From Candidatus Fervidifonticultor secundus (GTDB lineage: Bacteria > Sysuimicrobiota > Sysuimicrobiia > Sysuimicrobiales > Humicultoraceae): a DNA stretch of 64,000 bases. Each line of letters opens with the position of its first letter. The first letter of the stretch is position 1. A program made the translations under genes and the position numbers. The notes beneath the pieces are model-generated. The model saw nothing but the letters and a program-made list of their open reading frames with translations, was not told the origin of the DNA and made no database searches. Of this stretch, positions 23,330-43,812 are shown in pieces. Location: NCBI GenBank assembly GCA_031459385.1, contig JAVKIP010000001.1, positions 256,001-320,000 on the forward strand. The letters are read 5' to 3'.

Positions 23330-24655
23330 TCAGCCCCCGCCCGTTTCCTCGCCCGTCGCAGGCGCCGCGGCGGGGGAGGTACCGGCGGCACGCCGCGGGC
23401 GTGCAGGCGCCAGGGCCACCAGTCCCACCAGCGGGCCCGCCGCCAGCAGCGCGAACGCCCATCCCCACCGGGCCGCAGCCGGCAGCCCGAGTCGCGTGCC
23501 CGCGTCGAGCGTCAGGCCCACGGCAGCAGGGGAGGCTGCGGTGGCCGCCCATCCCAGCAGCATCTGGACCGCGAACGCGCCACCGAGCGAGCGCGCAGGG
23601 ACGACCTCCATCAGCGCTGCCGGATACGACGGTGAGTCGGCCAGGCTCACCGTACCGTAGAGGAGCGCGACACCCGCGGTGAGCGCCACCGGCGCCGCGA
23701 CGAGCCACCCGAAGCAAAGCGAGCAGACCAGGCTCACCGCCAGCATGACCCTGGCCGCCGGCATGCGTCCCAGCCGGTCGGAGAGCCGGCCTCCTGCGAC
23801 CGCGCCGAGCGCGCCGCCGGCGCCGATCGCCGCTGCGGCCATCAGCCCGCCCCATGCCAGCACGGCGCGGTCGGCCTCGCCGCGGGCCTGGAGCGAGGCG
23901 ACCATGAACGGCGCGAGCCACGTCCACAGGCCGAACAGCTCCCAGTTGTGGCCGGTGTACGCCAGGATCACCCTGCGGGCCGGAGCGTTGCCGAGCACGT
24001 CGCGGGCGTAGCGCGACAGGGCCGCGGGCCCCGGCGGCGCCGGGAGCGGTACGGCCGGTACCTGCCACGCCATGACCAGCGCGCCCAGCACCTCGAGCAC
24101 GCCCACGGCCGCCATGGTGGCCCGCCAGCCGATGCGCGGGACCAGCACGCCGGCGTAGACCAGTGGCAGGGCATAGGCCGCGACGATCGTGGCGATGAAG
24201 ATGCCGGTGGCGCTTCCGCGCGAGGCACGGGGCACGGTGTCGGCGATCTGCTTGAGGGCGGGCAGGTAGAGCCCGCCGACCAGCACCCCGACCAGCATCC
24301 GCAGGGCCAGTCCCGAAGGGAAGTCGCGCGCGGCTGCGGCGAAGGCCAGGTCGCCGATCCCCACGAGCGCGGCCGAGGCTGCCATGATGGGCTTGCTCTG
24401 CACGCGGTCGAGCAGGAAGCCGATGGTCACGTACGCCGCCAGCGTGCCCAGCTGGAAGCCGCCCAGGATCACGCCGGCCTGCGCGGCCGAGAGGCCCCAC
24501 GCCGTGCCCAGCACCGGAATCAGCGCCGAGAACACCAGCCCGGTCTGGTGGCCGAGGAACTGGCCGACGCAGAGGGCGACGAAGCCGCGCACCCACATCC
24601 GGCTCCCGGCACCGGGCGCGGACACCGGCGCGTCACGCATCGGACGCCGGTTCAC
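23330..24655 (-). CDS. MFS transporter
   Basis: About 12 TM helices, GRLSDRLGR motif A; GTGA overlap with the kinase stop. Confidence 0.88.
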   Translation of the reverse strand: MNRRPMRDAPVSAPGAGSRMWVRGFVALCVGQFLGHQTGLVFSALIPVLGTAWGLSAAQAGVILGGFQLGTLAAYVTIGFLLDRVQSKPIMAASAALVGIGDLAFAAAARDFPSGLALRMLVGVLVGGLYLPALKQIADTVPRASRGSATGIFIATIVAAYALPLVYAGVLVPRIGWRATMAAVGVLEVLGALVMAWQVPAVPLPAPPGPAALSRYARDVLGNAPARRVILAYTGHNWELFGLWTWLAPFMVASLQARGEADRAVLAWGGLMAAAAIGAGGALGAVAGGRLSDRLGRMPAARVMLAVSLVCSLCFGWLVAAPVALTAGVALLYGTVSLADSPSYPAALMEVVPARSLGGAFAVQMLLGWAATAASPAAVGLTLDAGTRLGLPAAARWGWAFALLAAGPLVGLVALAPARPRRAAGTSPAAAPATGEETGGG

Positions 24656-25560
24656 GCATCGCGCGCGAGGGCCAGCCAGGCCGGGAGCCGGGGATCGTCC
24701 AGCGCCCGGCGGTATCGGGCGAAGTGCGCATCGGCGCGGGCGGCGAAGTCGGGCGCGCTGGTGGCCAGGGCCTGCGCGGCCAGGTACCAGGTGGCATCCC
24801 GCATCTCTGCCAGGAGCCGCATGAGCTTGAGGCGGGCCATCCTAGCGGGCGTCACCCCGCCGAAGTAGGCGGTCAGCAGCGCGGCGTCGTCGGCGTCGCC
24901 GGGCGCATGGTAGATGGCGAAGGTGGCTAGGTCAAAGTACGGGTCGCCCAGGCCCGCGTACTCCCAGTCCACGATCCAGACCCGCGCGCCATCGTCGACG
25001 AGGTTGGCACCCCACAGGTCGTTGTGGCAGGGGACCAGCCGGGGCTCCGACTCCAGGACGGCTGCCACCTCGGCGAGGCGGGCGGTCAGGACCGGCAGAT
25101 CGCCGGGGGTCGGCACGCCCCGCGCACGCGCAGCGTCCAGGTAGGCCTCGGTCGTGCGCAGCGGAGAGAACCTCCCGGGGACGGGCGGCGGGCTCTCGTG
25201 GTAGCAGCGGACGGCTGCCACGACGCGCCGGACGACTGCCGGCGCCGCGGGCTCGCCGGGCGCCAGCGTCCGGCCGGGCACGAAGCGCGTGACCATGAGG
25301 CCGGCCTCGGGCGCGACGTGCACGACCTCGGGCGCCGCGCCGGCGCGGCTCGCGGCCAGCGCGCAGGCACGTTCCCGCTGGCGGTCGATCCCGAGCACCT
25401 CGGCCGCCGGCGCGAGCAGGCGCACCACGAAGGCCTCGCCGTCCACGTCCACGCGGTAGGTGCGGTTGGTGAGGCCGCCGGCGAGCGGTGCGATGCGCAC
25501 CGCGCGGGCCGTCCGCCACGCGGGAATCCGGGTGATGGCCTGCGCGATCTCGTCGCACAC
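24652..25560 (-). CDS. Choline/ethanolamine kinase family phosphotransferase
   Basis: GGLTN, GIDRQRE, CHNDL..AN Brenner motif, IVDWEYAG. Confidence 0.88.
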   Translation of the reverse strand: MCDEIAQAITRIPAWRTARAVRIAPLAGGLTNRTYRVDVDGEAFVVRLLAPAAEVLGIDRQRERACALAASRAGAAPEVVHVAPEAGLMVTRFVPGRTLAPGEPAAPAVVRRVVAAVRCYHESPPPVPGRFSPLRTTEAYLDAARARGVPTPGDLPVLTARLAEVAAVLESEPRLVPCHNDLWGANLVDDGARVWIVDWEYAGLGDPYFDLATFAIYHAPGDADDAALLTAYFGGVTPARMARLKLMRLLAEMRDATWYLAAQALATSAPDFAARADAHFARYRRALDDPRLPAWLALARDA

Positions 25561-25570: not shown

Positions 25571-25849
25571 TCACTCCCGCGCGCTCGCCCGGAACGCGTC
25601 GAACTGCGCCTCCAGTTCCGCCGCCACCGCCGCCGCCACGGCCTCGGGCTCCCCCTCCCGCTCCAGCTCCGGACCCACGTGCCAGCCCTGCAGGTAGGCG
25701 TCGGTGCCGGTCAGGCCCTGGCGCATCGCGGCCGCGTCGATGAGTCCCTGGAACCGCGGGTCGAGGGGGCGTCGCACCCGCACCGTCGCGTCGAACGCCT
25801 CGACCTGCGCCGGGATCGTCTGCCAGTAGGTGATGCGGTAGCGGGCCAT
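25571..25849 (-). CDS. Small 'Virulence factor' family protein (PF13769-like)
   Basis: YWQTIPAQV...RFQGLIDAAAM..GL.GTDAYLQGW pattern. Confidence 0.75.
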   Translation of the reverse strand: MARYRITYWQTIPAQVEAFDATVRVRRPLDPRFQGLIDAAAMRQGLTGTDAYLQGWHVGPELEREGEPEAVAAAVAAELEAQFDAFRASARE

Positions 25850-25856: not shown

Positions 25857-26528
25857 TCAGCCCTGGCCCGCGGCCCGCATCTGCTCCACGAAGCGGATGG
25901 CCAGGGTGACGCCGGCCTGCGCGGTCTCGCCGTAGCCGTCGGCGGCGATCCTGCGCGCGAACGCCTCGGTCACCGGCCCGCCGCCCACCAGGATCGTGTG
26001 CCGCTCGCGGATGCCGCGGGCCTCGAAGAACTCGATGACCTCACGCATCGACGGCATCGTGGTGGTCATCAGCGCCGAGAGCCCCACGATCTGCGCGCCG
26101 GTCTCCTCCGCCTTCTCGACGAACTTCCCCGGGTGCACGTTCACGCCCAGGTTGTGGACCTCGAACCCGGCTACTTTCAGGAGCGTCCCGAACAGGTCCT
26201 TGCCGATCGAGTGCACGTCGCCCTTGACCGTACCGATCACCGCCACGCCGCGCTTCTGGTAGCCGGCGCCCTGGGCCAGGATCGCCGGTTCGAGCACCTT
26301 CATCGCCTCCAGGAAGACCTTGGCGGCCATCATGAGCTCCGGCAGGAAGATCTCCATGGCCTGGAACTTCTCGCCGATGACGGCGATCCCGGGCGAGAGA
26401 CCCTCGTCGATCAGCCGCAGCGGCGGCAGGCCCCGCTCCAGGCCCTGCCGGACCAGCGCGACGCCGCGGTCGGCGTCGTAGTCGAGCACCGCCTGCTTCA
26501 GGCCCTCCAGGAGGGCAGCCTCGTCCAT
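25857..26528 (-). CDS. Methyltransferase corrinoid protein (MtmC/MttC-like)
   Basis: Cap motif IFLPELM, DVHSIGK (DxHxxG), SALMTTT, VGGGP. Confidence 0.93.
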   Translation of the reverse strand: MDEAALLEGLKQAVLDYDADRGVALVRQGLERGLPPLRLIDEGLSPGIAVIGEKFQAMEIFLPELMMAAKVFLEAMKVLEPAILAQGAGYQKRGVAVIGTVKGDVHSIGKDLFGTLLKVAGFEVHNLGVNVHPGKFVEKAEETGAQIVGLSALMTTTMPSMREVIEFFEARGIRERHTILVGGGPVTEAFARRIAADGYGETAQAGVTLAIRFVEQMRAAGQG

Positions 26529-26585
26529 TCATGAACCTCCCCACGCGCCGCCGCCGCACGGCCCGCGCCGTGCGGCTCCGTGCGG

Positions 26586-27959
26586 CTAGCGCAGCGGCAG
26601 CCCCAGCCGGCGCAGGTCCTCCTTGGCCCGGGCGTAGATCTCGTAGTGCCAGGGTGCCGGCTCCAGCGTGTCCACATCGTAGCAGTCCTGGAACCGGTGG
26701 CCCTCCGGCGCGCCTTCCAGGTGCGGTTCGTAGCGGGCGAGTAGCGCCTGCACGATCTCGTTGCCCTGCTCGCGGGTCATGCCCGCGGCCGCGTGGGCCA
26801 CCTCGCACGCGAAGCGCATCTCCAGCGGGCTGTAGTTGTCCATCAGGATGCCCTTGGCCGGATGGACCGTCTCGATGTTGGCGCCCGAGACGACGTCGGC
26901 GATGATGCGGGCCGCGGTCTCGTCGTAGAGTTGTGGCGTGGCGGTCCCGGCCGCGGCGTAGCCCAGGTCGAAGTAGGGGAAGGCCATGTTGCGGCTGACG
27001 GCCTGGCAGCCCAGCGCGACGCTGGTCAGCACCTCGCGGGCCGTGGAGTTGGACTGGGTGATGTGCAGAGAGTAGAGCAGGTGGTAGGTGGCGCCTACCA
27101 GCAGGGGCCCGGCCATGATGTACGCCGCGTTGAGCACCGCCGAGCCAATGACCCCGCCGGCGAACCCACCGTAGATGGCGCCGGCCGCGAACCCCACGTT
27201 GCCCCCGAACGAGAGCACGGCGGCGGTCTTGTTGAGGACGTTGTAGTCTAGCTTCAGCTCCGACAGCGACACGATCAGCCAGCCGTCGCTGGGGCGCAGG
27301 CCGTACTCGCGGTTCGTCACGGCCAGCACGCCCATGGGCGACGCGGAGGTGGACAGCAGGTTGATGATGGGCAACCCCGGCCGCCCCGCACGGCGCATCG
27401 ACTCGCGCCCCAGCCGCACCGACTGGATGGCGGCGAAGATCTCCGAGGGGGCGCCGGCCTGGACCGGCATGCCGCGGATGCGGGTCAGCGCCGGGATGCT
27501 CATGGAGTCGGCCTGCGGGATGCGCGCGTAGCCTTCCACTACGGCCGAGGCGATCTCGTCGGAGGAGACCGGGATTCCGCCACCCACGTGGCACCACGGT
27601 CGCCGCGGGTCCTCGGGCCGGCGCGGCCGCATGGCCCCCCGGTCTTTCCCCTCGCCCAGCACGCACTCCCGCGGCGCGTGGTGGATCGCGTCGTCGAGTT
27701 CCTCCCGGGTGAACGTGATGACCCGGTTCGTGTCGGGGCAGTAGCAGCCTGTGTCCACCAGGAACTCCCTGGCGGCGTGGAAGATGCGGTCGGCCAGGTC
27801 GTCGTCCCACGGCACGACCACGTCCTTCGGCGGGGCCTTCAGCCCGTACCGGGCGACGGCCTTCGCCAGGTTCGGCACGAACCGCTGCATGTCGAACTCC
27901 TCCGGTGCGACGATCGGGCCGGTCGTCGCCCGCCGGCAGATCTCCAGGAAGGGCACCAT
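26586..27959 (-). CDS. mtmB: Monomethylamine:corrinoid methyltransferase (MtmB) family protein without pyrrolysine
   Basis: 457 aa, collinear with Methanosarcina MtmB as recalled (DDDLADRIF, YCPDTNRVI, AGRPG, ELKLD, GGFAGG, AKG, FQDCYDV); no in-frame TAG. Confidence 0.88.
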   Translation of the reverse strand: MVPFLEICRRATTGPIVAPEEFDMQRFVPNLAKAVARYGLKAPPKDVVVPWDDDLADRIFHAAREFLVDTGCYCPDTNRVITFTREELDDAIHHAPRECVLGEGKDRGAMRPRRPEDPRRPWCHVGGGIPVSSDEIASAVVEGYARIPQADSMSIPALTRIRGMPVQAGAPSEIFAAIQSVRLGRESMRRAGRPGLPIINLLSTSASPMGVLAVTNREYGLRPSDGWLIVSLSELKLDYNVLNKTAAVLSFGGNVGFAAGAIYGGFAGGVIGSAVLNAAYIMAGPLLVGATYHLLYSLHITQSNSTAREVLTSVALGCQAVSRNMAFPYFDLGYAAAGTATPQLYDETAARIIADVVSGANIETVHPAKGILMDNYSPLEMRFACEVAHAAAGMTREQGNEIVQALLARYEPHLEGAPEGHRFQDCYDVDTLEPAPWHYEIYARAKEDLRRLGLPLR

Positions 27960-27992
27960 GCGTCTCCTCCTCGGCCCCGTGGGCAGCACCCG

Positions 27993-28907
27993 CTAGCGAC
28001 GGGCGCGCACGACCGCGGCGATGCGCCGGATGTGCTCGGGCGTGCTGCCGCAGCAGGCGCCCACGATGCGCGCGCCGGCCGCGACGATCGCCGGGTAGCC
28101 GGCGGCCATCGCGTCCGGGGCCAGGTCGTAAACCGTGCGGTCGTCGACGATCTTCGGCATGCCGGCGTTGGGATAAGCGACCAGCGGTCGGTCGGTGGCC
28201 GTGCGCATCCCGGCGATGATGACCGCAGCGCGCGCCGGGCCGCCCTCGCCGCAGTTGCAGCCGACGATGTCGGCGCCTGCCTCCGCCAGCACGCGCGCGG
28301 CCTCCGCCGGCGTCGAGCCCCAGAGGGTGCGGTCCATCTGCCGGGCCGCATTGTACTGGAAGAACATGGTGGCCATTACCGGCAGGCCCGTGGTCTCCTT
28401 GGCGGCCCGGATGGCGGCGACCGCCTCGTCGGGTACCATCATCGTCTCTACCGCGAGCAGGTCCACGCCCCCGTCGGCCAGCGCCATGGCCTGCTCGGCG
28501 AAGCTGGCGCGCATCTCGTCGACGGAGACGTCGCCCATCGCCGCCAGGGTGTCGGGCAGGTGCCCGGTGGGCCCCATGGAGCCCGCAACATACCTGCCCG
28601 GCGGACAGGCCGCACGCGCCAGCCTGGCCCCCAGGTAGTTCAGGTCGCGCACCCGCGCCTCGAGGCCGTAGGGCGCCAGTTTGAGCCGCGTGCCGCCGAA
28701 GGTGTTGGTCTCGACGATGTCCGCCCCGGCGGCGAGGTAGGCGCGGTGGATGCCCTCCACGACGTCGGCGCGGGTCTCGTTCCATAGCTCCGGGCAGGCG
28801 CCCTGCGTCAGGCCCGCCTCGAAGAGCATGGTGCCCATGGCGCCGTCGAGGATCAGGACCTCCGACGTCAGGCGTTCCAGCAGTTCCCGTCCGCGCGCGT
28901 CCCCCAT
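27993..28907 (-). CDS. Stand-alone homocysteine S-methyltransferase (MetH Hcy-binding module)
   Basis: ILDGAMGT, ETNTFG, GSMGPTG, GCNC, YPNAG.P, GACCG Zn ligands. Confidence 0.92.
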   Translation of the reverse strand: MGDARGRELLERLTSEVLILDGAMGTMLFEAGLTQGACPELWNETRADVVEGIHRAYLAAGADIVETNTFGGTRLKLAPYGLEARVRDLNYLGARLARAACPPGRYVAGSMGPTGHLPDTLAAMGDVSVDEMRASFAEQAMALADGGVDLLAVETMMVPDEAVAAIRAAKETTGLPVMATMFFQYNAARQMDRTLWGSTPAEAARVLAEAGADIVGCNCGEGGPARAAVIIAGMRTATDRPLVAYPNAGMPKIVDDRTVYDLAPDAMAAGYPAIVAAGARIVGACCGSTPEHIRRIAAVVRARR

Positions 28908-29038
28908 CGCTGTGTCCCTCTGGCTTGCGCGCCCGTGCGTCCACCGAGCCCACGTCTCGTACGTGGTGCCCGCGCATCCGCCCCGCCAAGACGCGCCCGG
29001 CCCGATCCGCTGGGCGTCCGGCGCGGCCCACCCTTTCG

Positions 29039-30907
29039 CTACCGAAACTGCAGCGCCTCCAGGAACACGTCCTGGAACTCCGGGTGCGTGGCGAGCGGCA
29101 CGTGCCGGATCCGGCCCGCCAGCGCCTCCGCCCGACGCCGCTCGGTCTCGGAGACCAGCGCCAGCTGCGCGCCCAGCCCGGCCGCGTTGCCCACGTAGTG
29201 TACGCGCTCCTGGGGCAGGCGCGGGATGAGTCCGATGCGCGCAGCGCTGTCGACGTTCAGGTAGTTCCCGAACCCGCCGGCCAGCAGCAGTTCCGCCAGC
29301 GCGCCGTCCGGCACGTCTGCCAGCCGCTGGAGCATGGCGATGCCGCTGCGGATCGCGCCCTTCGCGAGCTGCACCTGACGGATATCCGCCTGCGTCAGCA
29401 CCACGGCCTGGCCGGTGGCGGTCTCCGCCGCCGGCGCCACGAGGAAGGCGGGCAGGCCGTCGGGCAGGACGATCACCCGACGGCGCAGCGCGTCCGACAC
29501 GCCGGGCGGTGGCGAAGGATGGAGACGCCCGGAGGGGTCCACGATGCCTGCGTCCAGCAGCCCCGCGAGCAGGTCCAGCATACCCGAGCCGCACAGGCCG
29601 GCGGGCGCCACGTCGCCGATGACGTGATAGCGCACGTCGCGCCCGACATGCACCCGGTCCACGGCGCCGCGGGCCGCGCGCATGCCGCACCGCAGCTGCG
29701 CGCCTTCCAGCGCGGGGCCGGCGGGTGCCGAGCAGGCGACGAGCTCGCCGGCGCTGCCCAGTACCATCTCGCCGTTGGTCCCGATGTCCACCGCCAGGCG
29801 GGGCGGGCCGTCCGCGTCCAGCCGCGTGGCCAGGGCCATAGCCGTGGCGTCGGCCCCGACGAAGCCGGCCACGATCGGCAGCAGGAAGACCGGGGTTGCC
29901 GCGGGCAGCCGCAGGCCGACTTCGTGGGCGCTGAGGCGCAGCCCGCGGCGGACCCCCGGTGCGTAGGGTGCCTGCCCGACGTACGTGGGGTCCAGGCCCA
30001 GGAAGAGGTGGTGCATGACCGTGTTGCCGACCACGACGACTTTGTAGATGCGCTCGCGCGCGACCGCGGCCTGCCGGCACGCGTCGTCGATCTGGGCGTT
30101 CAGGTGCTGCAGCAACCGCACGTGCAGGCGCCGCACGTTGGCGGGGTGCTCCTGCGCGAACGCGATGCGCGACATCAGGTCGCCGCCGTAGGCGGCCTGG
30201 GGATTCAGCCCCGAGACCGTCGCCGCCACCGCGCCGCTTTGGAGGTCCACCAGGTAGCCGACGACGGTGGTGGTGCCGATGTCGAACGCCAGCCCGAACG
30301 CCTCTGCGCGCGTGTCACCGGGCTCCACGGCCAGCAGCAGGTTGCCGAAGAGAGCCACCGTAACTCCCGCCGGGCCGGCCCGCAGGAGCGACGGCAGCCG
30401 GCGCAGGGCGTCGAGGGCCACCTCCGTCCCCTCGGGCCGCGCGACGCCCAGCGGCCGCAGGAGCTCCTCCAGGTCAGAGGTGGAGCGCGTCTCGTCGGCC
30501 GGTGGAGCCGGGGCCACGAACGTCTTGACGAGCCCCGAGTCGAGGACGATCTCGTGCGCCGCCGGCAGCGTCGCCGTGGCGGCCAGGATCTGGAACGAAG
30601 CTTCCTCGAAGACCGGCGCCACCAGCGCGGTGAGATCGGTCCACGCCTCGGCCTGACAGGCCAGCCGGTAGCGGTCGCGCACCGCGTCGTCGCCGAGCTG
30701 CACGCGCTCGGCCAGCGAGGCCGGTGGCGGGGTGCCCGCGGTGATCTGCACGCGGCAGCTGCGGCAGCGGCCGCGCGCACCGCAGGTGGCCACGATCTCC
30801 ACCCCTGCCCGCTGCGCGGCGCGCAGCAGCGTCGTGCCCGCCTGGACGGCGACCGTCTGCCGTCCGGGCGCGAAGGTGATCGTCACCGGCTGGGTCACGG
30901 GCGGCAC
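29039..30907 (-). CDS. ATP-dependent reductive activator of corrinoid proteins (RACo/ASKHA) with N-terminal 2Fe-2S domain
   Basis: CGARGRCRSC...RLACQ, DIGTTT, GFVGAD, DIGTNGE, AGPALEG, GLCGSG, LAGGFG, GNAA. Confidence 0.92.
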   Translation of the reverse strand: MPPVTQPVTITFAPGRQTVAVQAGTTLLRAAQRAGVEIVATCGARGRCRSCRVQITAGTPPPASLAERVQLGDDAVRDRYRLACQAEAWTDLTALVAPVFEEASFQILAATATLPAAHEIVLDSGLVKTFVAPAPPADETRSTSDLEELLRPLGVARPEGTEVALDALRRLPSLLRAGPAGVTVALFGNLLLAVEPGDTRAEAFGLAFDIGTTTVVGYLVDLQSGAVAATVSGLNPQAAYGGDLMSRIAFAQEHPANVRRLHVRLLQHLNAQIDDACRQAAVARERIYKVVVVGNTVMHHLFLGLDPTYVGQAPYAPGVRRGLRLSAHEVGLRLPAATPVFLLPIVAGFVGADATAMALATRLDADGPPRLAVDIGTNGEMVLGSAGELVACSAPAGPALEGAQLRCGMRAARGAVDRVHVGRDVRYHVIGDVAPAGLCGSGMLDLLAGLLDAGIVDPSGRLHPSPPPGVSDALRRRVIVLPDGLPAFLVAPAAETATGQAVVLTQADIRQVQLAKGAIRSGIAMLQRLADVPDGALAELLLAGGFGNYLNVDSAARIGLIPRLPQERVHYVGNAAGLGAQLALVSETERRRAEALAGRIRHVPLATHPEFQDVFLEALQFR

Positions 30908-30953
30908 GCGGGAGCAGTGCGCATCAGGTCTGCGACCTGGCCGCAGGGCAGCC

Positions 30954-31589
30954 TCAGGGACGACCGGCGGCGACCAGACCGTACAGCCCCGAGACAGACT
31001 TGCCCGGCCGCATCACGCAATGGTCAGTGAGGCGCACCGCCACCAGGCCCTCGCCGAACGCGTCGAAGAGCGCGCGCTGCTGCTCCAGCGGCCAGCCGGC
31101 GAAGCCGGGCGCCAGGCGGGCCGTGAGCCGGTAGCCCCGCCGGCGGGCGTCAGCAGCCAGCCGCTGGCGCACGTCCCGGAGGAGGGCGTCGATGGCCACC
31201 CAGCCGCCGGTGTCGAGCAGGAGGCCTTCGACCACGTGCTCTTCGCGCATCAGGGCCTGGGCGCGCCGTTCGAGCGCGCTGCCGATGGTGAGCACCAGCA
31301 GCACGACTTCGGCGGCGCCGTCGAGCCGACGCGCCAGCGCCTGACTGTGGAACGCCACGCCGTCGTCGAGCAGCACCGCGCCCTGCGGGTCCACGCCGTG
31401 CACACGCGCGCGCCGCAGCCACCCGCGCGGCTCGAGCAGCGTCTCCGCCTGCGCGGCCATCCGCCGCGCAACCTCGCGGAGTTGGGGCGCCACCCGCTCG
31501 GGCCTGCGGTACTTGTGCAGGCGCAGGATGAGGGTAGCGTCGATGCGCGGCGGCCGCAGGCGCAGTTCCTCGATCATGTCTTGCCCCAT
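30954..31589 (-). CDS. Methionine synthase activation (SAM-binding) domain-like protein
   Basis: LTIGSALE, RLAPGFAGWPLEQQ, MRPGKSVSGLYG; start could be 31577. Confidence 0.8.
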   Translation of the reverse strand: MGQDMIEELRLRPPRIDATLILRLHKYRRPERVAPQLREVARRMAAQAETLLEPRGWLRRARVHGVDPQGAVLLDDGVAFHSQALARRLDGAAEVVLLVLTIGSALERRAQALMREEHVVEGLLLDTGGWVAIDALLRDVRQRLAADARRRGYRLTARLAPGFAGWPLEQQRALFDAFGEGLVAVRLTDHCVMRPGKSVSGLYGLVAAGRP

Positions 31590-31856
31590 GACGTCACCCG
31601 GCGGGCGATCACATCCCTGGCGTTCGCCCTGGCGCGACGCGCTCCTACTCCCTGCCGAGACCTCGGGGAGGCGCGCGGGTGCGGTGCCCGGCAGGCTCGT
31701 GTTCCCTGCGGCAGCGTCGGACGCCGCAGGGAGCGCGTCGGGCGTCACAGCCGCGGTCACGGCGGATGGATGGGTCGGCACCATCGTTGTGAGTGTGCGA
31801 CCGGGACCCGGGCGCGGCAATCACCGGTTCCGGGGACGCCGCCGGCGCCGGTTCCA

Positions 31857-33167
31857 CTACTTCTGCAGGTACCGGATCGCGGCCTCGGTGCGCGTCCGCA
31901 CCTGCAGCTTGGCGAAGATGCTGCGCAAGTGGTGGTGGACCGTCCAGCTGCTGATGCCCAGGCGGGCAGCGATCTCCCTGTCGAGGTAGCCCTTGCTCAG
32001 ATGGTCCAGGATCTCCTGTTCCCGCGGGGTCAGGCGGACCATCGCGGTGGCCTCCGCGGCCGACGGCACCGCGAACAGGCCCTCGAAGTAGCGCCGGATG
32101 CGTGCCGCCGCCTGCCCGGCAGCAAGCGGCCGGTGCCCGGGCGGCGGGCCCAGCGGCTCCAGCAGGCGCGCCGGTGGCCGGCGGCGCAGGATGTAGCCGG
32201 CGGCCACGCCGCCGAAGGACAGGAACAGCTGGTCGCTGTCCTGGTAGACGCCGTACTGGAAGACCGGGAGATCGGGCCGCTGTGTGGCCAGCTCCGCTGC
32301 AACACCGGCAGCGTCGGGCAGCGCCCGGTTCAGCAGGACGGCCGCAGCCTCCAGCTGCGGGGCCAGACGGAGCACCTCGCCCGGGACGGCGAACGGTGCC
32401 ACCGTCCAGCGCTCGGGATGGAGCGCGAGCGCGGCGGCCAGTGCCCGCCGGACGCCCGGGTCGGGCTCGACGACGCCGATCAGGCGCGCGGCCCGCGCCA
32501 GGGCGTCGGATGGCATCCCCGCACCACCCGGCGCGCCGGTCGGTCCCCCGCTCTCAGCGGGCTCGGTGTAGAGCGTCGTGTACGTCGACGCCAGCGGGTT
32601 CGCAGACCAGAAGATGGCGACGGTGATCTCCCGGGGGAAGATGGCGCGAGCGCGGGCCCACCCCACGTCCAGCACCGTGCGGTAGATCGACGCTGCCCGG
32701 CGTGCCGCGAGGGCGGGGTCCGCCGTCCCAAGCGGAAAGTAATGGCTCTCGCCGGCGTGCTCGATGCGCGCCGAGAGTTCGCCCGCCTGCTGGGGCCGGA
32801 GGCCTTCGGTGTACCGGCGGGTGAGCAGCCGCCGGCGCCAGTAGCGCGGCTGCAGGCCGGGGGCTGGCAGCGCCGGGGTGCGCAGGCCCCGCCGGCCGCC
32901 CGGCGTGCTCCGCGCGTCCAGGGCTGCCTGCCAGCCGCGGGTGACGATGGTGGCGTAGAGCGCACGCGCCCGGCGGGCGGCGACCAGGCGCGGGACGGCA
33001 CCCAGCGAGAACGTGCGCCGGCGCCCCTGGTGCTGGATCTTCACGGTCCACGTGCGCAGCCGGATCAACCGTCCGCGGCGCGTGTACGAGGCCCGGGCCA
33101 GCCGTGCGGCCCAGTAGCGCAGGGCCGTGCGTGTCCGGCCCCTGGTACTTGGACGCTGCTTGGACAT
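31857..33167 (-). CDS. LuxR-HTH regulator with pseudo-receiver and tandem N-terminal repeat domain
   Basis: LTPREQEIL...IAARLGIS..TV..HL..IFAKL; REC-like region with LLNRALPD; two ~66-aa repeats; start uncertain. Confidence 0.8.
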   Translation of the reverse strand: MSKQRPSTRGRTRTALRYWAARLARASYTRRGRLIRLRTWTVKIQHQGRRRTFSLGAVPRLVAARRARALYATIVTRGWQAALDARSTPGGRRGLRTPALPAPGLQPRYWRRRLLTRRYTEGLRPQQAGELSARIEHAGESHYFPLGTADPALAARRAASIYRTVLDVGWARARAIFPREITVAIFWSANPLASTYTTLYTEPAESGGPTGAPGGAGMPSDALARAARLIGVVEPDPGVRRALAAALALHPERWTVAPFAVPGEVLRLAPQLEAAAVLLNRALPDAAGVAAELATQRPDLPVFQYGVYQDSDQLFLSFGGVAAGYILRRRPPARLLEPLGPPPGHRPLAAGQAAARIRRYFEGLFAVPSAAEATAMVRLTPREQEILDHLSKGYLDREIAARLGISSWTVHHHLRSIFAKLQVRTRTEAAIRYLQK

Positions 33168-33374
33168 CTCTGGCAACTGTTCCGCGCGACACGGCCGTGC
33201 TCCTGCGGTCAGGGGCCCGGCGCGGGCCTCCCCCAAACGGGGGATTGCGCGCTCCCCGTGCCCCGCCGGGGCGATGTGACGCCAGCCGTGCGCAGCCGCC
33301 AGGGCGTCACGCGCTCAGGGGCGAAGGTGTGGAGCAGGTCACGCCATGGAGAGCTTGGTGTCGGGAGCAGACCG

Positions 33375-35795
33375 GTGAAGACCGACGCGCAGGCTGTGAT
33401 CATCGGCGGCGGTGTCTACGGGTGCAGCGTCGCCTATCATCTGGCGGCGCTGGGCTGGCGCGACGTGGTACTCGTCGAGAAGGGCCGCCTCACCGGTGGT
33501 GCCACCTTCCACGCCGCGGGGCTCGTGGGGCAACTGCGGAGCACCCTGAGCCTGACGCGGATGATCATGTACAGCGTGGCGCTGTACCGGCGCCTGGCGG
33601 CCGAGACCGGACAGGACCCCGACTGGCGCGAGACCGGCAGCCTGCGGCTGGCCGCGACCCCGGACCGGCTGGTGGAGCTGCGGCGCCACGCCGCGACGTC
33701 CAAGACCTACGGTCTGGAGATGCACCTGCTGACGCCCAGGGAGGCCGTAGACCTGTTCCCGGTGATGAGTGACCGGGACCTGCTCGGGGCCGCCTACGTG
33801 CCCACCGACGGCAGCGTCGATCCCAGCGGGCTGACGTTCGCGCTGGCCCGGGGCGCCCGGGCCCGCGGCGCCGAGATCCACGAGGGCGTCGAGGTCAGGG
33901 AGATTCTGACGCGCAACGGGCGGGTCAGCGGCGTCGTCACCTCGCACGGCACCATCAGGAGCGACGTCATCGTCAACACCGCCGGCATCTGGGGGCGGGA
34001 GCTCGCCGCCCGGGTGGGGGTGGTGCTGCCGATCTACCCCATCGAGCACCAGTACCTGCTCACAGGGCCCCTCGACGGGATCCGCCGCGGCCTGCCGGTG
34101 GTGCGCGATCCCGATCTGTTGATCTACTTCCGCGAGGAAGCGCGGGGCCTGTGCCTGGGCGGCTACGAGCGGCACCCGCTGCCCTGGGGCGTGAACGGCA
34201 TCCCCGCCGACTTCCATCACCGGCTGCTGCCGCCCAACTGGGAGCAGTTCGAGCCGCTGGCGCGCAACGCCGCGCGGCGCCTGCCGGCCCTGGAGAGCGC
34301 GGGCGTGCGCGAACTCGTCAACGGGCCCGACGGCATCACCGCCGACGGCGAGCTGATCCTGGGCGAGGCGCCGCAACTGCGCGGGTTCTTCGTGGCGTGC
34401 GGTACGCCGGGCATCGCGTCTGCGGGCGGCGTGGGACGGGTGCTGGCCGGGTGGATCGTCGAGGGCGACCCCGGGCTGGACGTCTGGCGCATGGACATCC
34501 GGCGCTTCCAGCCCCACTACGGCGACCCGGCCTATGCCCGCGCCCGCGCGCTGGAAGCGTACTCGAAAAACTACGTGCTCCGGTACCCCTTCGAGGAGTG
34601 GGAATCGGGCCGGGGCTACCGGCGCAGCCCGCCCTACCCGCGGCTGGTGGCCCTGGGCGCGGTGTTCGGCGAGAAGGCCGGGTGGGAGCGGCCCAACTGG
34701 TTCGTCAGCAACGAGCCGGCCGAGCCGCCGACGTGGGCGCCCCGGGGCTGGTTCCGGCACAACTGGTCGCCGGCCATCGGGGTCGAGCACCGCGCGGTGC
34801 GCGAGGCGGCGGGGCTGTGCGACTTCACGTCGTTCTCGAAGTTCGAGGTGACCGGTCCGGGCGCGCTGCGCCTGTTGCAGTGGTTGTGCGACAACGACGT
34901 GGACCGGCCGCCGGGCACCGTTGTCTACACCCAGATGCTGAACGCGCGGGGAGGGATCGAGTGCGACCTGACGGTGACGCGGCTGGGGCCGGACCGGTTT
35001 TTCATCGTCACCGGCAGCGCGTTTGGCGTCCACGACCTCGACTGGATCACGCGCCACACACCTGACGACGGCTCCGTGGCCGCTCGTGACGTCACCACCG
35101 AGTGGGCGTGCGTGGGGCTGTGGGGGCCGCGGGCCCGGGCGATCCTGGCGCAGGTCACCGACGCCGACGTCTCCACCGCGGCGTTCCCGTACATGACCGC
35201 GCGCGAGCTGCGCGTGGCGGACCGCCCCGTGCGGGCGCAGCGCGTCACCTACGTGGGCGAGCTGGGCTGGGAACTCTACATGCCGCCGTCGGACGCGGTG
35301 GCTGTCTGGGACGCGCTGTGGGCGGTCGGGCAGCCGTTCGGGCTGCGGGCGGTGGGCTACCGGGCGGTGGAGTCGCTGCGGCTGGAGAAGGGCTACCGGT
35401 ACTGGAGCGCGGAGGTTACGCCGGAGTACACGCCCTACGAGGCGGGGCAGGGGTTCTGCGTGAAGCTCGACAAGGGCCCCTTCCAGGGGCGCGAGGCGCT
35501 GCGGGCGCAGCGAGCCGCGGGCGTGCGCCGGCGGCTGTGCTGCCTGGTGGTGGCCGACCCGCAGGCCGTGGCGCTGGGCAACGAGCCGGTCTGCGACGGC
35601 GACCGCGTGATCAGCCGCGTGACCAGCGGCGGCTACGGCTACACGGTGGGCGAGAGCCTGGCCTACGCCTACCTGCCGGTGGCGCTGGCCGCGGTAGGCA
35701 CTCCACTCGCCGTGGAGATCGACGGCGATCGGGTGCCGGCTACGGTCGCCCGCGAGCCCCGCTACGACCCCGGCCACAGCCGCATCCGGGCCTGA
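33375..35795 (+). CDS. GcvT-family FAD oxidoreductase (dimethylglycine/sarcosine dehydrogenase-like)
   Basis: IGGGVYG, TFHAAG, GWERPNWF, YVGELGWELY, SLRLEKGYR; about 806 aa. Confidence 0.92.
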   Translation: MKTDAQAVIIGGGVYGCSVAYHLAALGWRDVVLVEKGRLTGGATFHAAGLVGQLRSTLSLTRMIMYSVALYRRLAAETGQDPDWRETGSLRLAATPDRLVELRRHAATSKTYGLEMHLLTPREAVDLFPVMSDRDLLGAAYVPTDGSVDPSGLTFALARGARARGAEIHEGVEVREILTRNGRVSGVVTSHGTIRSDVIVNTAGIWGRELAARVGVVLPIYPIEHQYLLTGPLDGIRRGLPVVRDPDLLIYFREEARGLCLGGYERHPLPWGVNGIPADFHHRLLPPNWEQFEPLARNAARRLPALESAGVRELVNGPDGITADGELILGEAPQLRGFFVACGTPGIASAGGVGRVLAGWIVEGDPGLDVWRMDIRRFQPHYGDPAYARARALEAYSKNYVLRYPFEEWESGRGYRRSPPYPRLVALGAVFGEKAGWERPNWFVSNEPAEPPTWAPRGWFRHNWSPAIGVEHRAVREAAGLCDFTSFSKFEVTGPGALRLLQWLCDNDVDRPPGTVVYTQMLNARGGIECDLTVTRLGPDRFFIVTGSAFGVHDLDWITRHTPDDGSVAARDVTTEWACVGLWGPRARAILAQVTDADVSTAAFPYMTARELRVADRPVRAQRVTYVGELGWELYMPPSDAVAVWDALWAVGQPFGLRAVGYRAVESLRLEKGYRYWSAEVTPEYTPYEAGQGFCVKLDKGPFQGREALRAQRAAGVRRRLCCLVVADPQAVALGNEPVCDGDRVISRVTSGGYGYTVGESLAYAYLPVALAAVGTPLAVEIDGDRVPATVAREPRYDPGHSRIRA

Positions 35796-35851: not shown

Positions 35852-37333
35852 CTATGCGCCCGGCCCGCGGTTCCCGGCGGGTGGGTGGACGGGGAAGCGC
35901 AGCCGTGCTGCTGCCGCCGCATAGGCTGCGGCGTCTTCCAGGTTGGCGTCCGCCAGGATCGTGAGCTTCTGAGTCTCCAGCGAGCCCTCGGCGTGGATGG
36001 CGAGCACTTCCAGATACCCACCGAGGTCGGACGCGCACAGGTCGCGGACGAGGTTCATCAGGCGCAGACGCTGCTCGCCGTCCCATCCGCTCCGCCCCTG
36101 GAGGTAGGGCTCTACCAGGCGGCGGACGGCCGGATTCCGCCAGTCATCTTCTGACGGCCCGGTCACCACAAGACCGCCGGCGATGTCCTGGACGTCGCGC
36201 ACCGCCTCGTGGTAGCCGCGGGCGAAGTGGTACTTCGCCACGTTGGTGAGGACGACGTCGGGGACGGCGACGCCGTCCCGCACCCGGCAGGCCGTGGCGG
36301 CCGCCGTCGTCAACCCCGTGACGGTGTGGAGGTACATGGCCAGACGGGCCAGCTTGTCCCGGACATGCGGCGCGCCAGCGATGCCGTTGGCATCCGCGGC
36401 GAGCGCTGCGGCCCCCAGGAGGAGCTCCAGGAGCGGGGGTTTGTACGCGATGGCCGTGAACCGGTGAAACTCCACAAACGTCCTGGCCAGCTGGCCGGCG
36501 AACTGCCACTGGCCGTCGAGGAAGACCCGGTCGGTGGGCACGAACACGTTGTCGAAGATCGTGAGCGACTCCGTCAGGGAGTACCGGCTGCTCAGCGGAT
36601 TGTCGAACTCGCTGGTCGCGCCAAACCCCCGGGGGCTCGCCACCATAGTCAGGCCGGGGGTGTCGGCCGGGATCGCAAAGGCCACGGCGTAGTCTGCGTC
36701 GGCCTCGCCCAGCGCCCGTGTCGGCAGCACCACGATCTCGTTGCTGAAGACGGCATTGGTCGTATGGGCCTTGGCGCCGCGCACCACGATGCCGTCCCGT
36801 CGGCGTTCCACCACGCGCACGTACAGGTCCGGGTGTGGCTGCTCGCTCGGGCGGCGCGCGCGGTCCCCCTTGACGTCAGTCTGCGCCACCGCCATGGCCA
36901 GGTCGCCGTCGCGGCAGTGCCTGTGAAAGGCCCGCACGCGGGGCAGGAACTGTGTGCCGAGTTCCCGATCCATGGCGGCGGTTACCACCGTCAGGGCGAA
37001 CAGGGCGTCCGTGCCGATCTCCTTGATCAGCGGGACGAACGACCAGGCCGCGCGTGTCACGGTGGTGATCAGCCGGCTGCGCAGTTGCAGATCGTGCGGG
37101 CTGCGCGGGATGCAGAAGTACCGGCTGACCGGTCGACCGTCCTCGGGGTCGTCGGTGACGGCCAGGGGCCGGACCGCGGGGTCTTCCGCCAGGCGGAAGT
37201 CCACCGTCAGGTGCTGCGCGCCGCGCCCCAGATGCGGATGGGTGGTGACGTCCGCCACCGCTTCGCCGCGGTAAAACACCTGTCGGCCGTCTCGCAGGCT
37301 CGCCAGGTACTGCTCGGGTGATCGCAGACCCAT
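35852..37333 (-). CDS. HpaB/4-hydroxybutyryl-CoA dehydratase family flavoprotein
   Basis: YLASLRDGR, AQTDVKGDR, DGIVVRGAKAH, FDNVFVP, DIAGG. Confidence 0.85.
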   Translation of the reverse strand: MGLRSPEQYLASLRDGRQVFYRGEAVADVTTHPHLGRGAQHLTVDFRLAEDPAVRPLAVTDDPEDGRPVSRYFCIPRSPHDLQLRSRLITTVTRAAWSFVPLIKEIGTDALFALTVVTAAMDRELGTQFLPRVRAFHRHCRDGDLAMAVAQTDVKGDRARRPSEQPHPDLYVRVVERRRDGIVVRGAKAHTTNAVFSNEIVVLPTRALGEADADYAVAFAIPADTPGLTMVASPRGFGATSEFDNPLSSRYSLTESLTIFDNVFVPTDRVFLDGQWQFAGQLARTFVEFHRFTAIAYKPPLLELLLGAAALAADANGIAGAPHVRDKLARLAMYLHTVTGLTTAAATACRVRDGVAVPDVVLTNVAKYHFARGYHEAVRDVQDIAGGLVVTGPSEDDWRNPAVRRLVEPYLQGRSGWDGEQRLRLMNLVRDLCASDLGGYLEVLAIHAEGSLETQKLTILADANLEDAAAYAAAAARLRFPVHPPAGNRGPGA

Positions 37334-37393
37334 GGTGTCCACCTCGCTCTCAGGCGACATAGTGGTCGCCCGGTGCTGCGCGCGTGCGTGTGT

Positions 37394-38722
37394 TCAGATC
37401 AGGCGGCGTGGCAGCGGCACCGGCCCCGCAGTGAAGCGGGCCAGCCGAAAGGCGGTAATCTCGTGCCGCGTGTGTCCCTCGAGCGCGAGATCGGCCAGGA
37501 TCGTGCCCAGCGCCGGGCCCAGGGCCAGCCCGTGGCCGCTCAAGCCGGCGGCCAGGGTGACGCCGTCCGGCCTGACCCGGTCGACGACAGGCAGGCCGTC
37601 GGGTGACAGGTCGATGAAGCCGGCCCAGCGCCGCGTGACGGCCGCGTCCGCTAGCGGCGGAATCCGGGCCTGGAGCGCCGCGAACGCCCGGTCCAGCAGC
37701 ATACGGTCCGGAACCGGCTCGAGGCCCACCGGAATCTGAGGCGCGCCACCGCGCAGGGCCCCACGCACCTCGCGCGCCACCTGCCGAACGTCGACGCGCA
37801 GGGCCACCTGCTGCCTGTAGGCCCAGTACCGCGGCAGCCAGAGGCGCAACGTCCGCAAGTCCTCGAGGGAGACGAGGTGGCCGACGCGGGCGTTGAGCCC
37901 TGCACCGAAGACCACTTTACCATCGGGCCGCTGGCGGCAGCTGTAGGATGCCGCCCGCACGGTGGCCCGAAACAGCGGGGGTACTCCAGAGCTTTCCGCG
38001 TTGCTGTAGATTAGGGTCTTGATCGGGATAGAGACTCCCAGCGGGGCGAGCAGCGCTGGCGTCCAGACGCCGGCTGCAACCACCACCGCCCGGGTCCGCA
38101 CGGCACCCCGGTCGGTGACCACCGCCTCAGCCGCCCCGTTGATCGCCTCGATGCCCAGCGCCCGCGTCCGTACGGCAAACACTGCGCCGTGCCGGATCGC
38201 GGCCCGCGCATAGGCCGCGACGGCCTTGCCGGGGTTGCAGTGCGCGTCGCGAGGGCTGTACAGCCCCGCCACGATCCTTCCAGCCCATCCCGGGAGCAGA
38301 TCGCGCACCTGGGCCGGGGTCAGCAGCCGAACGTCCTCGAGACCAGCGTCGCGGGCGTGCTGCAGGTGCGTCCGGAGCAGCTCGACCTCGTCGTCGCGTT
38401 CGGCCACGTAGAGGTTCCCACCTTGCACGAACTCGAAGTCGTCTTCGAGGTCCCGCGCTGCCCGGGCCCACAGATCCAGCGCGCTCATGGCCAGCGGCAG
38501 TTCGGCCGGGTGCCGCCCGTGCACGCGCAGGCTGCCGAAGCTGCGCCCAGATCCCTCCGGTGCAACCGTCCCTTCCTTCTCCACGACGAGAACCGCCGCC
38601 CCGCGCCGCGCCGCTTCGACAGCGCAGGCGCAGCCGCAGATGCCTGCGCCGATGACGACCAGATCCGCGCGGGTGGGAAGCTGCGGGCCCCGGGCGTTCA
38701 CCGCGGCTGGCGTCGGTCCCAC
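37394..38722 (-). CDS. FAD-dependent oxidoreductase (DAO family)
   Basis: GAGICG, AAGVW, WAGFIDLSPDGLP, SGHGLALGP. Confidence 0.85.
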   Translation of the reverse strand: MGPTPAAVNARGPQLPTRADLVVIGAGICGCACAVEAARRGAAVLVVEKEGTVAPEGSGRSFGSLRVHGRHPAELPLAMSALDLWARAARDLEDDFEFVQGGNLYVAERDDEVELLRTHLQHARDAGLEDVRLLTPAQVRDLLPGWAGRIVAGLYSPRDAHCNPGKAVAAYARAAIRHGAVFAVRTRALGIEAINGAAEAVVTDRGAVRTRAVVVAAGVWTPALLAPLGVSIPIKTLIYSNAESSGVPPLFRATVRAASYSCRQRPDGKVVFGAGLNARVGHLVSLEDLRTLRLWLPRYWAYRQQVALRVDVRQVAREVRGALRGGAPQIPVGLEPVPDRMLLDRAFAALQARIPPLADAAVTRRWAGFIDLSPDGLPVVDRVRPDGVTLAAGLSGHGLALGPALGTILADLALEGHTRHEITAFRLARFTAGPVPLPRRLI

Positions 38723-41375: not shown

Positions 41376-41386
41376 CGGCGGCGGTC

Positions 41387-42175: not shown

Positions 42176-42183
42176 GGTGGCCC

Positions 42184-43011: not shown

Positions 43012-43014
43012 CGC

Positions 43015-43812
43015 TCACCCCGCACGCGCCGCTGTGCCCTCGATCTGCAGCTGGACGTCCTCCGCCACGTGCTCCCAGACGAGACGCTTGAGGCGGGCGT
43101 ACTCGGGATCGCTCTGGACGTCCAGACCGCGGGGGCGCGGCAGCGTGTTGTCGATGATGGCCCGGACGCGCCCGGGCCGGGCCCGGAGCACGACGATGCG
43201 GTCCGAGAGGACCAGCGCCTCGTCGATATTGTGCGTGACGAACAGCGTGGTCTTACGGCTCTCCTGGTGGATGCGCAGAAACTCCTGCTGCAGCACCTGG
43301 CGGGTCATGGCGTCCAGGGCCGCGAAGGGCTCGTCCATGAGCAGGATCTCCGGGTCGCTGGCGAGGGCGCGGGCCAGTGCGACCCGCTGCTGCATGCCGC
43401 CCGACAGCTCCGACGGATACAGCTGTTCGTAGCCCCGCAGGTTGACCATCGTCAGGTAGTGCGATGCGCGGTCAGCGACGGTGCGCGGGGAGAGCCCCTT
43501 GAGCCGCAGCGCGAACTCTACGTTGCCGCGGACTGTCTTCCAGGGGAACAACGCGTAGTTCTGGAAGACGATGCCACACCGGCGTTCCACGCCCGCGATC
43601 GGCACACCACGCAGCAGGAGCTGCCCGCTGGTTGGTTCAATGAACCCGGCCACCATGTAAAGGAAGGTCGTCTTCCCGCACCCGGAGCTCCCCACGAGGC
43701 ACACGAGCTCGTGTTCGTGGACGGTGAGGCTCAAGTCCTCGAGCGCCACCACCTGGCGCCCGTGGCCGCCGACGAAGATCTTCGTGACGTGATCTGCGAC
43801 GAGAACGCCCAT
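43015..43812 (-). CDS. ABC transporter ATP-binding protein (TauB/SsuB/NitT type)
   Basis: [29 protein letters not shown]. Confidence 0.92.

Follow-up and report, generated by a model that had tools for sequence, protein, structure and literature searches.

In the MtgBCDE system of Ruegeria pomeroyi DSS-3 (2025), a donor methyltransferase shares its corrinoid protein with a homocysteine module, and the mtgC and mtgD mutants are methionine auxotrophs that are unable to use glycine betaine (PMC12478193). A three-part split methionine synthase (MetH) with a RamA-like activase has been described in Phaeobacter inhibens (PMC5764234). A further precedent is MtqB of Methanococcoides methylutens Q3c (2026), an MtmB-family enzyme free of pyrrolysine (Pyl), which demethylates tetramethylammonium and choline and which branches near the Pyl-type MtmBs in the tree of that paper (PMC13044021); statements on these three reports draw on the accessible parts of their texts. 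Here we describe an operon in a window of 64,000 nucleotides from the uncultured hot-spring bacterium Candidatus Fervidifonticultor secundus, phylum Sysuimicrobiota (the window is the whole stretch of DNA analysed, and coordinates refer to it unless another contig or locus is named). In this operon, a Pyl-free MtmB homologue is encoded together with a MetH-type Zn homocysteine S-methyltransferase (HcyMT), a corrinoid protein, a RACo-type reductive activator, and a stand-alone MetH activation-domain protein.

The operon resembles MtgBCDE and the split MetH, as far as the accessible texts describe them, in keeping the donor methyltransferase and the MetH-type homocysteine module as separate proteins that share a dedicated corrinoid protein, together with a RamA/RACo-type activase, linkage to a dimethylglycine dehydrogenase (DMGDH)-type gene, and an aerobic-type bacterial host. 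The relatives of the operon also share with MtgBCDE a pterin methyltransferase and a methylenetetrahydrofolate reductase (MTHFR) paralogue. The differences lie in the donor module, which belongs to the MtmB family (PF05369) whereas that of MtgBCDE belongs to the MttB family (PF06253); in the arrangement as a single operon, the MtgBCDE genes being scattered; in the TM0269-like and PF13769 proteins of the operon, which would stand in place of the DUF1638 protein of MtgBCDE; in the hosts (Sysuimicrobiota, Methylomirabilota, and Armatimonadota versus marine Rhodobacterales); and in the lack, by deletion, of an MtgD-like pterin module and an operon MTHFR in the present genome. No open reading frame (ORF) of the operon matched DUF1638 in the Pfam scans, the whole genome not having been searched for PF07796. 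Like the MtqB/MtqC pair, the window encodes a Pyl-free MtmB-family methyltransferase beside its own corrinoid protein, but MtqB/MtqC is archaeal and methanogenic and, in the accessible text, has a coenzyme M methyltransferase (MtqA/MtbA) and not an HcyMT on the acceptor side; general Pfam scans of the operon ORFs found no URO-D/MtbA family member, and no search aimed at URO-D/MtbA was made.

Other described systems share single components. MtgB/MtgC/MtgA of Desulfitobacterium hafniense and the MttB relatives of Eubacterium limosum also employ a non-Pyl enzyme of a Pyl family to move methyl from a quaternary amine to a corrinoid, with RamA-type reactivation; they differ in the donor family, in their anaerobic hosts, and in having tetrahydrofolate (THF) as the only acceptor, without a homocysteine module. 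Betaine-homocysteine methyltransferase (BHMT) has the same PF02574 Zn domain and, if the donor is glycine betaine, would carry out the same net reaction (betaine + homocysteine → dimethylglycine + methionine), but BHMT is a single enzyme without corrinoid. To our knowledge, no three-protein corrinoid-dependent counterpart of BHMT has been described. TM0269 of Thermotoga maritima is a stand-alone MetH activation fold of ~210 amino acids (aa) with the motif RxxPG[FY], as in the window, and is needed for reactivation of T. maritima MetH; it serves a fused Hcy-pterin-B12 MetH (TM0268), whereas the window protein accompanies fully split modules and RACo.

We propose that the conserved operon probably encodes a corrinoid-dependent methyl relay like MtgBCDE with an MtmB-family donor module instead of an MttB-family one, a reading based on homology that we favor with moderate confidence. 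The logic of a relay between a donor methyltransferase and a homocysteine module, which a previous sequence-only reading of this DNA had proposed, is already published (PMC12478193, PMC5764234, accessible parts); what is new is the MtmB family in place of MttB as donor module. We found no published linkage of an MtmB homologue with a homocysteine methyltransferase in a literature search, and the main texts of two papers on Sysuimicrobiota/CSP1-3 (PMC11604079, PMC11962464) do not mention methylamine, mtmB, betaine, corrinoid, or dimethylglycine.

The MtmB homologue and its partner proteins

The genome is a metagenome-assembled genome (MAG) of 3.30 Mb in 59 contigs, 97.6% complete with 5.5% contamination. 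Real genes were chosen by codon-position G+C and family searches, codon-position G+C being used because the window has a G+C content of 67-77%. All five genes that the sequence-only reading had placed at 25857-31589 were found there, co-directional on the minus strand, and the limits of this interval coincide exactly with the stop of the corrinoid gene and with the start at which the activation-domain gene is conserved. They are part of one co-directional row of closely spaced minus-strand genes running from 33236 down to 23330; by the gene coordinates, the intergenic gaps from the activation gene to a kinase gene are 46, 131, 33, 57, 7, and 10 nt.

The MtmB homologue (26586-27959, minus strand; 457 aa counted from Met11, with the ORF extending to 27989 and 27959 as the probable start) matched PF05369 with 300.1 bits over profile positions 5-450 of 450. 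It aligned with the solved Methanosarcina barkeri MtmB (PDB 1L2Q) at E 1.4e-58, residues 17-464 against 12-456. The ORF contains no in-frame stop, and the residue opposite the Pyl of 1L2Q is an Ile within the motif GRPGLPIINLL; Ile occupies the Pyl-equivalent site, in the motif AGRPGLPIINLLS, in all 17 rows of the clade of this protein. Searches of the genome for PylS (best score 21.5 bits against a cut-off of 178) and for tRNA-Pyl (none among 56 tRNAs) were negative, so the description of the enzyme as pyrrolysine-free holds. With Ile at the site, no stop, and neither PylS nor tRNA-Pyl found, the protein falls outside the Pyl-type MtmBs proper. It is the sole PF05369 gene of the genome, which has no match to the MttB family (PF06253). 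The sequence-only reading had known of no characterised non-Pyl MtmB; MtqB, in the accessible parts of its report (PMC13044021), is now such an enzyme.

A quick IQ-TREE phylogeny was built from 83 rows: 17 from the clade of the MtmB homologue, 40 of 73 from its sister non-Pyl clade, 25 of 109 from the Pyl set (the latter two drawn at random), and one from a genome of the same family, G031. In this tree the full-length PF05369 protein and its clade lie inside the non-Pyl MtmBs; the clade comes out monophyletic (SH-aLRT 100) and has a long stem (0.87), and the Pyl-type enzymes stand apart (99). Judged from separate trees, as MtqB was not in ours, the window protein would belong to a non-Pyl group other than that of MtqB (PMC13044021, accessible parts). 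Branches within the clade are very short even though they span three phyla, which suggests recent transfer, strong constraint, or both. The G031 protein (L168, G031:C1:1303-2637) is a third type of stop-free MtmB homologue, with 33% identity to the window protein, Leu at the Pyl-equivalent site, and no copy of the one-residue insertion found in the other non-Pyl clade; its place in the tree is next to the Pyl-type enzymes, at the end of a long branch. Neither the protein search started from the G031 clade nor the cluster look-up returned a Methanococcoides protein. The best 80 matches of a PF05369-wide locus search fell in 77 loci, nearly all of Methanomassiliicoccales.

The HcyMT (27993-28907, minus strand, 304 aa) is a stand-alone protein with a PF02574 score of 249.3 bits. 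It is closest to the homocysteine domain of MetH, its best solved relative being Thermus MetH (PDB 8SSC, E 3.2e-49, 171 bits) and another MetH match being 1Q7M (E 6e-44), with much weaker matches to BHMT (1UMY, E 9.3e-18, 68 bits) and MmuM (5DML, E 2e-16, 64 bits). The Cys triad of the Zn site is kept as Cys219, Cys285, and Cys286 in the motifs GCNCG and GACCG, aligned with MetH; no NCBIfam match above a curated cut-off was found. The corrinoid (B12-binding) carrier protein (25857-26528, minus strand, 223 aa) consists of B12-binding_2 (67.6 bits) and B12-binding (92.2 bits) domains and carries GDVHSIG (DxHxxG) at residue 103, SAL (SxL) at 151, and GGG at 182. It matched MttC (PDB 7XCN) at E 2.3e-43 and also resembles MtmC and the Moorella protein 1Y80.

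The RACo-type ATP-dependent reductive activator (29039-30907, minus strand, 622 aa) has an N-terminal 2Fe-2S ferredoxin domain, and its four Pfam domains all score above cut-off and in the expected order (Fer2 48.1, RACo_linker 38.4, Raco_middle 186, and RACo_C_ter 257.9 bits); against NCBIfam AcsV it scored 383.6 bits, below the cut-off of 800. The activation gene lies in an ORF of 288 aa (30954-31820), but the alignment of 11 orthologues begins at Met78 (31589), giving a conserved protein of 211 aa (30954-31589, minus strand). This protein scored 22.5-22.7 bits against PF02965, below the cut-off of 25, whereas a profile of the 11 orthologues matched TM0269 (PDB 1J6R) at E 2.1e-5, with the motifs RxxPG[FY] and KSxSG aligned. 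An AlphaFold2 (AF2) model (pLDDT 85.8, pTM 0.83) superposed on 1J6R in Foldseek with TM scores of 0.73/0.78 and E 1.5e-9, and all 19 Foldseek matches at E<=0.001 were MetH activation domains. Of the four modules of MetH, three are thus present as separate proteins and the pterin module is absent.

Loss of the folate branch

The Pfam scans found no pterin-binding module within the window, as the sequence-only reading had noted, and the whole-genome search for a MetH pterin domain gave one PF00809 match, a FolP-like gene of ~280 aa on contig C11, which we infer from its length and sequence to be a dihydropteroate synthase. No canonical MetH was found in the genome, the sole PF02965 match being that of the window, and the sole MTHFR, on contig C58, is joined to a second HcyMT domain in a YitJ-like fusion. 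Since MetH and a MetH-type pterin module are absent from the genome, homocysteine is the only encoded acceptor.

Related genomes have a different layout. Of the 11 other matching genomes in a scan of 94 genomes of the phylum, four were fetched (G001, G002, G006, and G007). In G001 and G002, which belong to the same genus, the gene order is LuxR - MTHFR - pterin methyltransferase - formate-tetrahydrofolate ligase (FTHFS) - activation protein and onward; in G007, of the same family, it is LuxR - MTHFR - pterin methyltransferase - activation protein and onward; and in G006, also of the same family, LuxR - pterin methyltransferase - activation protein and onward. The pterin methyltransferase gene is present in the loci L014 and L016 too. 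The pterin protein of L013/G006 scored 314 bits on PRK07535 (methyl-THF:corrinoid/iron-sulfur protein methyltransferase; cut-off 259), and the FTHFS scored 690.7 bits on PF01268. A 516-aa ORF in the corresponding gap of G001 (L163:15307-16857) was rejected as a gene, being in the wrong frame and without a Pfam match; the right frame encodes FTHFS.

In blastn comparison with G002, positions 30947-31650 and 31857-33123 of the window matched L164 7320-8011 and 12348-13620, so that ~207 bp separate the homologous blocks here (a deletion scar at 31651-31856 by the blastn boundaries) versus ~4.3 kb in G002. The comparison indicates that a deletion of ~4.1 kb took out MTHFR, the methyl-THF:corrinoid methyltransferase, and FTHFS in this genome, and because it removed the folate branch, homocysteine was left as the sole encoded acceptor. 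The junction is spanned, with no differences, by run-level contigs from all four metagenome runs in which this DNA occurs; the runs come from one hot-spring study, and three of them may be the source of the DNA itself. This shows that the deletion exists in the DNA and did not arise through binning. Since related genomes carry the pterin module within the operon, its absence is derived and not the original design. The pterin-free layout noted by the sequence-only reading is not the design of the system, the four fetched relatives all keeping the methyltransferase in the operon. The folate-independent route that this reading had proposed is partly supported, as the gene content fits a path from donor to MtmB homologue to corrinoid to homocysteine, while the absence of the pterin module on which it leaned is a recent loss.

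Two gene fragments lie elsewhere in the window. The only tblastn match in the genome for the L013 pterin protein is a remnant of 27 codons from the N-terminus of the gene (49085-49165, minus strand; 74% identity over residues 6-32, E 2e-6 within the window). Abutting it, end to end, is a fragment from the C-terminal third of a second kinase gene of the choline/ethanolamine family (48803-49078, plus strand; residues 147-238, 49% identity, E 3e-23 in tblastn), and a 139-aa ORF at 48779-49198 matches only positions 143-223 of 239 of the APH profile. The two fragments look like relics, left either by a second copy that was rearranged or by a former gene order of the operon.

Conservation of the linkage and candidate methyl donors

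Among species-representative genomes, 13 relatives share 81-92% identity with the MtmB homologue; their labels are Ca. Fervidifonticultor (Sysuimicrobiota), Methylomirabilota/NC10, Armatimonadota, or 'uncultured bacterium'. A large protein collection holds 19 clusters at 80-94% identity, the next being at <=49%. Within the phylum of the window, the homologue occurs in 12 of 94 genomes, all of one family. The MtmB homologue was recovered in all 13 related loci, the corrinoid gene in 12 (the 13th locus is incomplete), and both the MtmB homologue and HcyMT in 10; given these 10 loci with both genes, the gene arrangement is not due to chance. In L011 and L012, which are Methylomirabilota loci, the co-directional order is HcyMT - DMGDH-like gene - MtmB homologue - corrinoid protein - activation protein; RACo comes next in L012, and the L011 stretch stops before that position. 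The sister clade (38-54% identity; Anaerolineae, Syntrophales, Planctomycetota, Spirochaetota, and Dehalococcoidia), in which tandem paralogues are common, has a corrinoid gene nearby in 31 of 57 loci, a pterin gene in 4, and HcyMT in none, and the HcyMT link is therefore specific to the clade of the window.

The DMGDH-like gene (33372-35795, plus strand), divergent from the LuxR gene, encodes a flavoenzyme of 807 aa of the dimethylglycine dehydrogenase/oxidase family, with DAO, FAO_M, GCV_T, and GCV_T_C domains, the GcvT part being folate-binding. It matched rat DMGDH (4P9S, E 1.7e-165) and Arthrobacter dimethylglycine oxidase (DMGO; 1PJ5, E 6.7e-152) over the full length, with no NCBIfam equivalog above cut-off. 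Because such a gene is linked in 9 of the 13 loci (inside the operon in the Methylomirabilota loci), a quaternary amine is the predicted donor, with glycine betaine first and choline second. G006 has a second DMGDH-like paralogue, which fits glycine betaine, since a dimethylglycine step and then a sarcosine step would be expected. In our estimate glycine betaine is the single likeliest donor, though short of an even chance; choline and some other trimethylammonium compound follow, level with each other, and a donor other than a quaternary amine is well behind.

Choline would be favored by the MtqB precedent and by a kinase of the choline/ethanolamine-kinase family (APH fold) encoded in the operon (24652-25560, minus strand, 302 aa; APH 91.6 bits, Choline_kinase 45.6 bits; PDB 3DXQ, E 1.2e-35). 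The kinase gene lies within the operon in this genome, L004/G002, L014, G001, and G007; it was not found in the fetched stretches of the Methylomirabilota operons, which weighs against choline. A route for the kinase from choline through ethanolamine to a phosphoethanolamine lyase was considered and gained no support, as the G006 class-III aminotransferase, whose gene adjoins the DMGDH-like gene, is nearest to glutamate-1-semialdehyde aminomutases.

Importer genes recur around the operon. In G007 (L166 3177-7200), a full PotD-type ABC importer, consisting of a TAT-signal SBP_bac_8 protein, a TOBE_2 ATPase, and two permeases, is inserted between the corrinoid gene and the kinase gene, and probably takes up the methyl donor. 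In the window, the minus-strand genes at 49261-56012 encode a class-V aminotransferase, a fused double ABC permease, a TOBE_2 ATPase, an SBP_bac_6 protein, and an aldehyde dehydrogenase, a layout usual for the uptake and catabolism of 2-aminoethylphosphonate-type compounds. ABC importers of a similar kind adjoin the MtmB operon in L006, L008, L010, L011, L013, and G007. Because of the aminophosphonate-catabolism-like cluster, a phosphonate-type trimethylammonium compound stays among the possible donors.

Proposed working, rival readings, and neighboring genes

All steps of the proposed relay are drawn from homology and gene linkage. The Pyl-free MtmB homologue would demethylate a quaternary ammonium compound and methylate Co(I) of the corrinoid protein, and the Zn HcyMT would pass the methyl group from the corrinoid to homocysteine, yielding methionine. 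Co(II) would be re-reduced by RACo with expenditure of ATP, helped by the TM0269-like activation protein, probably via S-adenosylmethionine (SAM)-dependent re-methylation, while the demethylated tertiary amine would be oxidised by the linked DMGDH-family enzyme. In the relatives, the same corrinoid protein would also exchange methyl groups with tetrahydrofolate via the pterin methyltransferase, as an outlet or an inlet, and MTHFR, sometimes with FTHFS, would lead the folate branch toward formate. With this branch deleted, the system of the present genome would amount to a folate-independent, B12-dependent, donor-fed methionine synthase. The further idea that the deletion turned a methylamine-catabolic relay into a dedicated methionine synthase of this kind, which would use an osmolyte-type quaternary amine via an MtmB-fold enzyme, is tentative, and we consider it possible but doubtful.

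An operon that is mainly catabolic via tetrahydrofolate, here reduced to a handicapped remnant with methionine as a side reaction, is in our view unlikely, but several findings fit it. The four fetched relatives keep the pterin methyltransferase, three of them with MTHFR (G001, G002, and G007) and two with FTHFS (G001 and G002); the catabolic flux of Ruegeria runs via MtgD and MetF2, whereas betaine does not induce MtgE (accessible parts of the report); and the remnants of the pterin and kinase genes indicate rearrangement. The DMGDH-like neighbor, moreover, is a catabolic folate enzyme and so points to methylated-amine catabolism over dedicated biosynthesis. The remaining operon genes are, however, all intact, with pairwise dN/dS values of 0.11-0.31 against G001 for all eight genes tested (values that span both lineages and from which selection after the deletion is not datable), and the presence of HcyMT in the operon at 10 of 13 related loci argues for methionine formation as a conserved output. 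A donor that is no quaternary amine, such as a methylated nucleobase, a methylated amino acid, or a methyl-sulfur or methyl-phosphonate compound, seems improbable. The substrate is known for one non-Pyl MtmB only, the linked importers are of PotD/PhnS type, and the aminophosphonate-catabolism-like cluster lies beside the gene remnants; yet the MtqB and MtgB papers argue, in their accessible parts, that Pyl-free enzymes use substrates that are already positively charged, and the DMGDH/DMGO family acts on tertiary and secondary N-methyl amines, which are the expected products from quaternary amines.

It is very improbable that the HcyMT acts alone with S-methylmethionine or SAM, in the manner of MmuM/YagD, and is merely co-located with an unrelated corrinoid demethylase. 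PF02574 does include corrinoid-independent enzymes and the protein has no NCBIfam match above a curated cut-off, but its score against MetH is far above those against MmuM and BHMT, and its gene stands between those for RACo and the MtmB homologue, is linked in 10 of 13 loci, and heads the same operon in a different order in L011 and L012. Least probable, and scarcely credible to us, is a pterin partner elsewhere in the genome that supplies methyl-THF, in which case the system would be an ordinary split MetH with the MtmB homologue as an add-on. Such a gene could be missed in a MAG of 59 contigs with the completeness and contamination given above, and the relatives do possess one; nevertheless, the whole-genome PF00809 search returned only the FolP-like gene, tblastn with the relatives' protein returned only the 27-codon remnant, and the site of the gene in the relatives is a sequenced, bridged deletion here.

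Returning to the proposed relay to homocysteine, we note several points that weigh against it. The linked importers are MFS and PotD/PhnS-type ABC transporters and not the usual betaine/choline importers, with no OpuAC/BCCT-type betaine transporter among the linked genes; the kinase would have no role in a betaine pathway; and HcyMT was not in the fetched stretches of L008-L010, three of the 13 loci. Flux would be limited by the supply of homocysteine, so that the form with the deletion may be an impaired system for catabolism and no adapted methionine synthase. Three short MetE-like genes (318-373 aa), two of them adjacent, are present at C8:53962-56036 and C34:8066-9160, all scoring below the NCBIfam methionine synthase cut-offs, and may provide B12-independent methionine synthesis; because of these genes and the YitJ-like HcyMT-MTHFR fusion, the cell need not depend on the operon for its methionine. 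Neither CbiC nor CobS was found in the 97.6% complete genome, so the organism may rely on imported corrinoid.

The features that set this system apart are the MtmB-family donor module, the completeness of the relay in one operon, and the natural deletion that leaves homocysteine as sole encoded acceptor. It would represent a second version, with a different donor-enzyme family, of the link between methionine synthesis and N-osmolyte demethylation in marine Proteobacteria, and its hosts are lineages from hot springs, groundwater, and soil. Hundreds of Pyl-free MtmB homologues exist in bacteria and archaea, and MtqB (2026) is the only one with a known substrate according to the accessible parts of its report. 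If the system of this genome is indeed a dedicated methionine synthase, this would be the first physiological role assigned to the bacterial non-Pyl MtmB family. Because all relay partners are encoded in one operon, with at least 81% identity across three phyla, beside a DMGDH-type gene, the donor is directly testable with a few candidate amines, and the natural deletion variant allows comparison of the form with folate and homocysteine outlets with the homocysteine-only form.

The operon is headed by a gene for a LuxR-family regulator with a GerE helix-turn-helix domain (31857-33236, minus strand, 52.5 bits), found at the same position in L013, L014, L016, G001, G002, and G007. An Rfam search of the window at gathering thresholds gave neither a riboswitch nor a match to any other RNA family. 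Downstream of the kinase gene, an MFS transporter gene (23330-24655, minus strand; MFS_1 105 bits) has a start that overlaps the kinase stop by 4 nt, and occupies the same position in L004, L005, L014, G001, and G007. Between the corrinoid and kinase genes lies a gene for a small PF13769 protein of 92 aa (25571-25849, minus strand, 56.3 bits), which also directly follows the corrinoid gene in L004, L005, L006, L013, L014, and G001. The PF13769 domain is fused to B12-binding_2 and B12-binding domains in an 87-member Atlas cluster, most often from Verrucomicrobiota. A structure model of the window protein (pLDDT 78.2) had no match among solved structures at E<=0.001. The protein is probably an accessory of the corrinoid protein, and the Pfam name 'Virulence_fact' is misleading, because PF13769 is conserved after corrinoid proteins or fused to them.

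A tRNA-SeC is present in the genome. Just beyond the DMGDH-like gene, the minus-strand genes at 35852-38722 encode an HpaB-family flavin monooxygenase and a DAO-family oxidase; the nearest solved structure of the latter is the sarcosine oxidase-like chain 1Y56_B (E 8e-35), and it could catalyze the sarcosine step of a betaine pathway. The minus-strand genes at 38698-42187 encode an acyl-CoA ligase, an acyl-CoA dehydrogenase, and a crotonase-family hydratase, for which the weaker NCBIfam matches include the carnitine/crotonobetaine families CaiC and CaiA and generic families score higher. They are followed by genes for a DUF6282 protein and a TauABC/SsuABC-like ABC importer (42184-45699).

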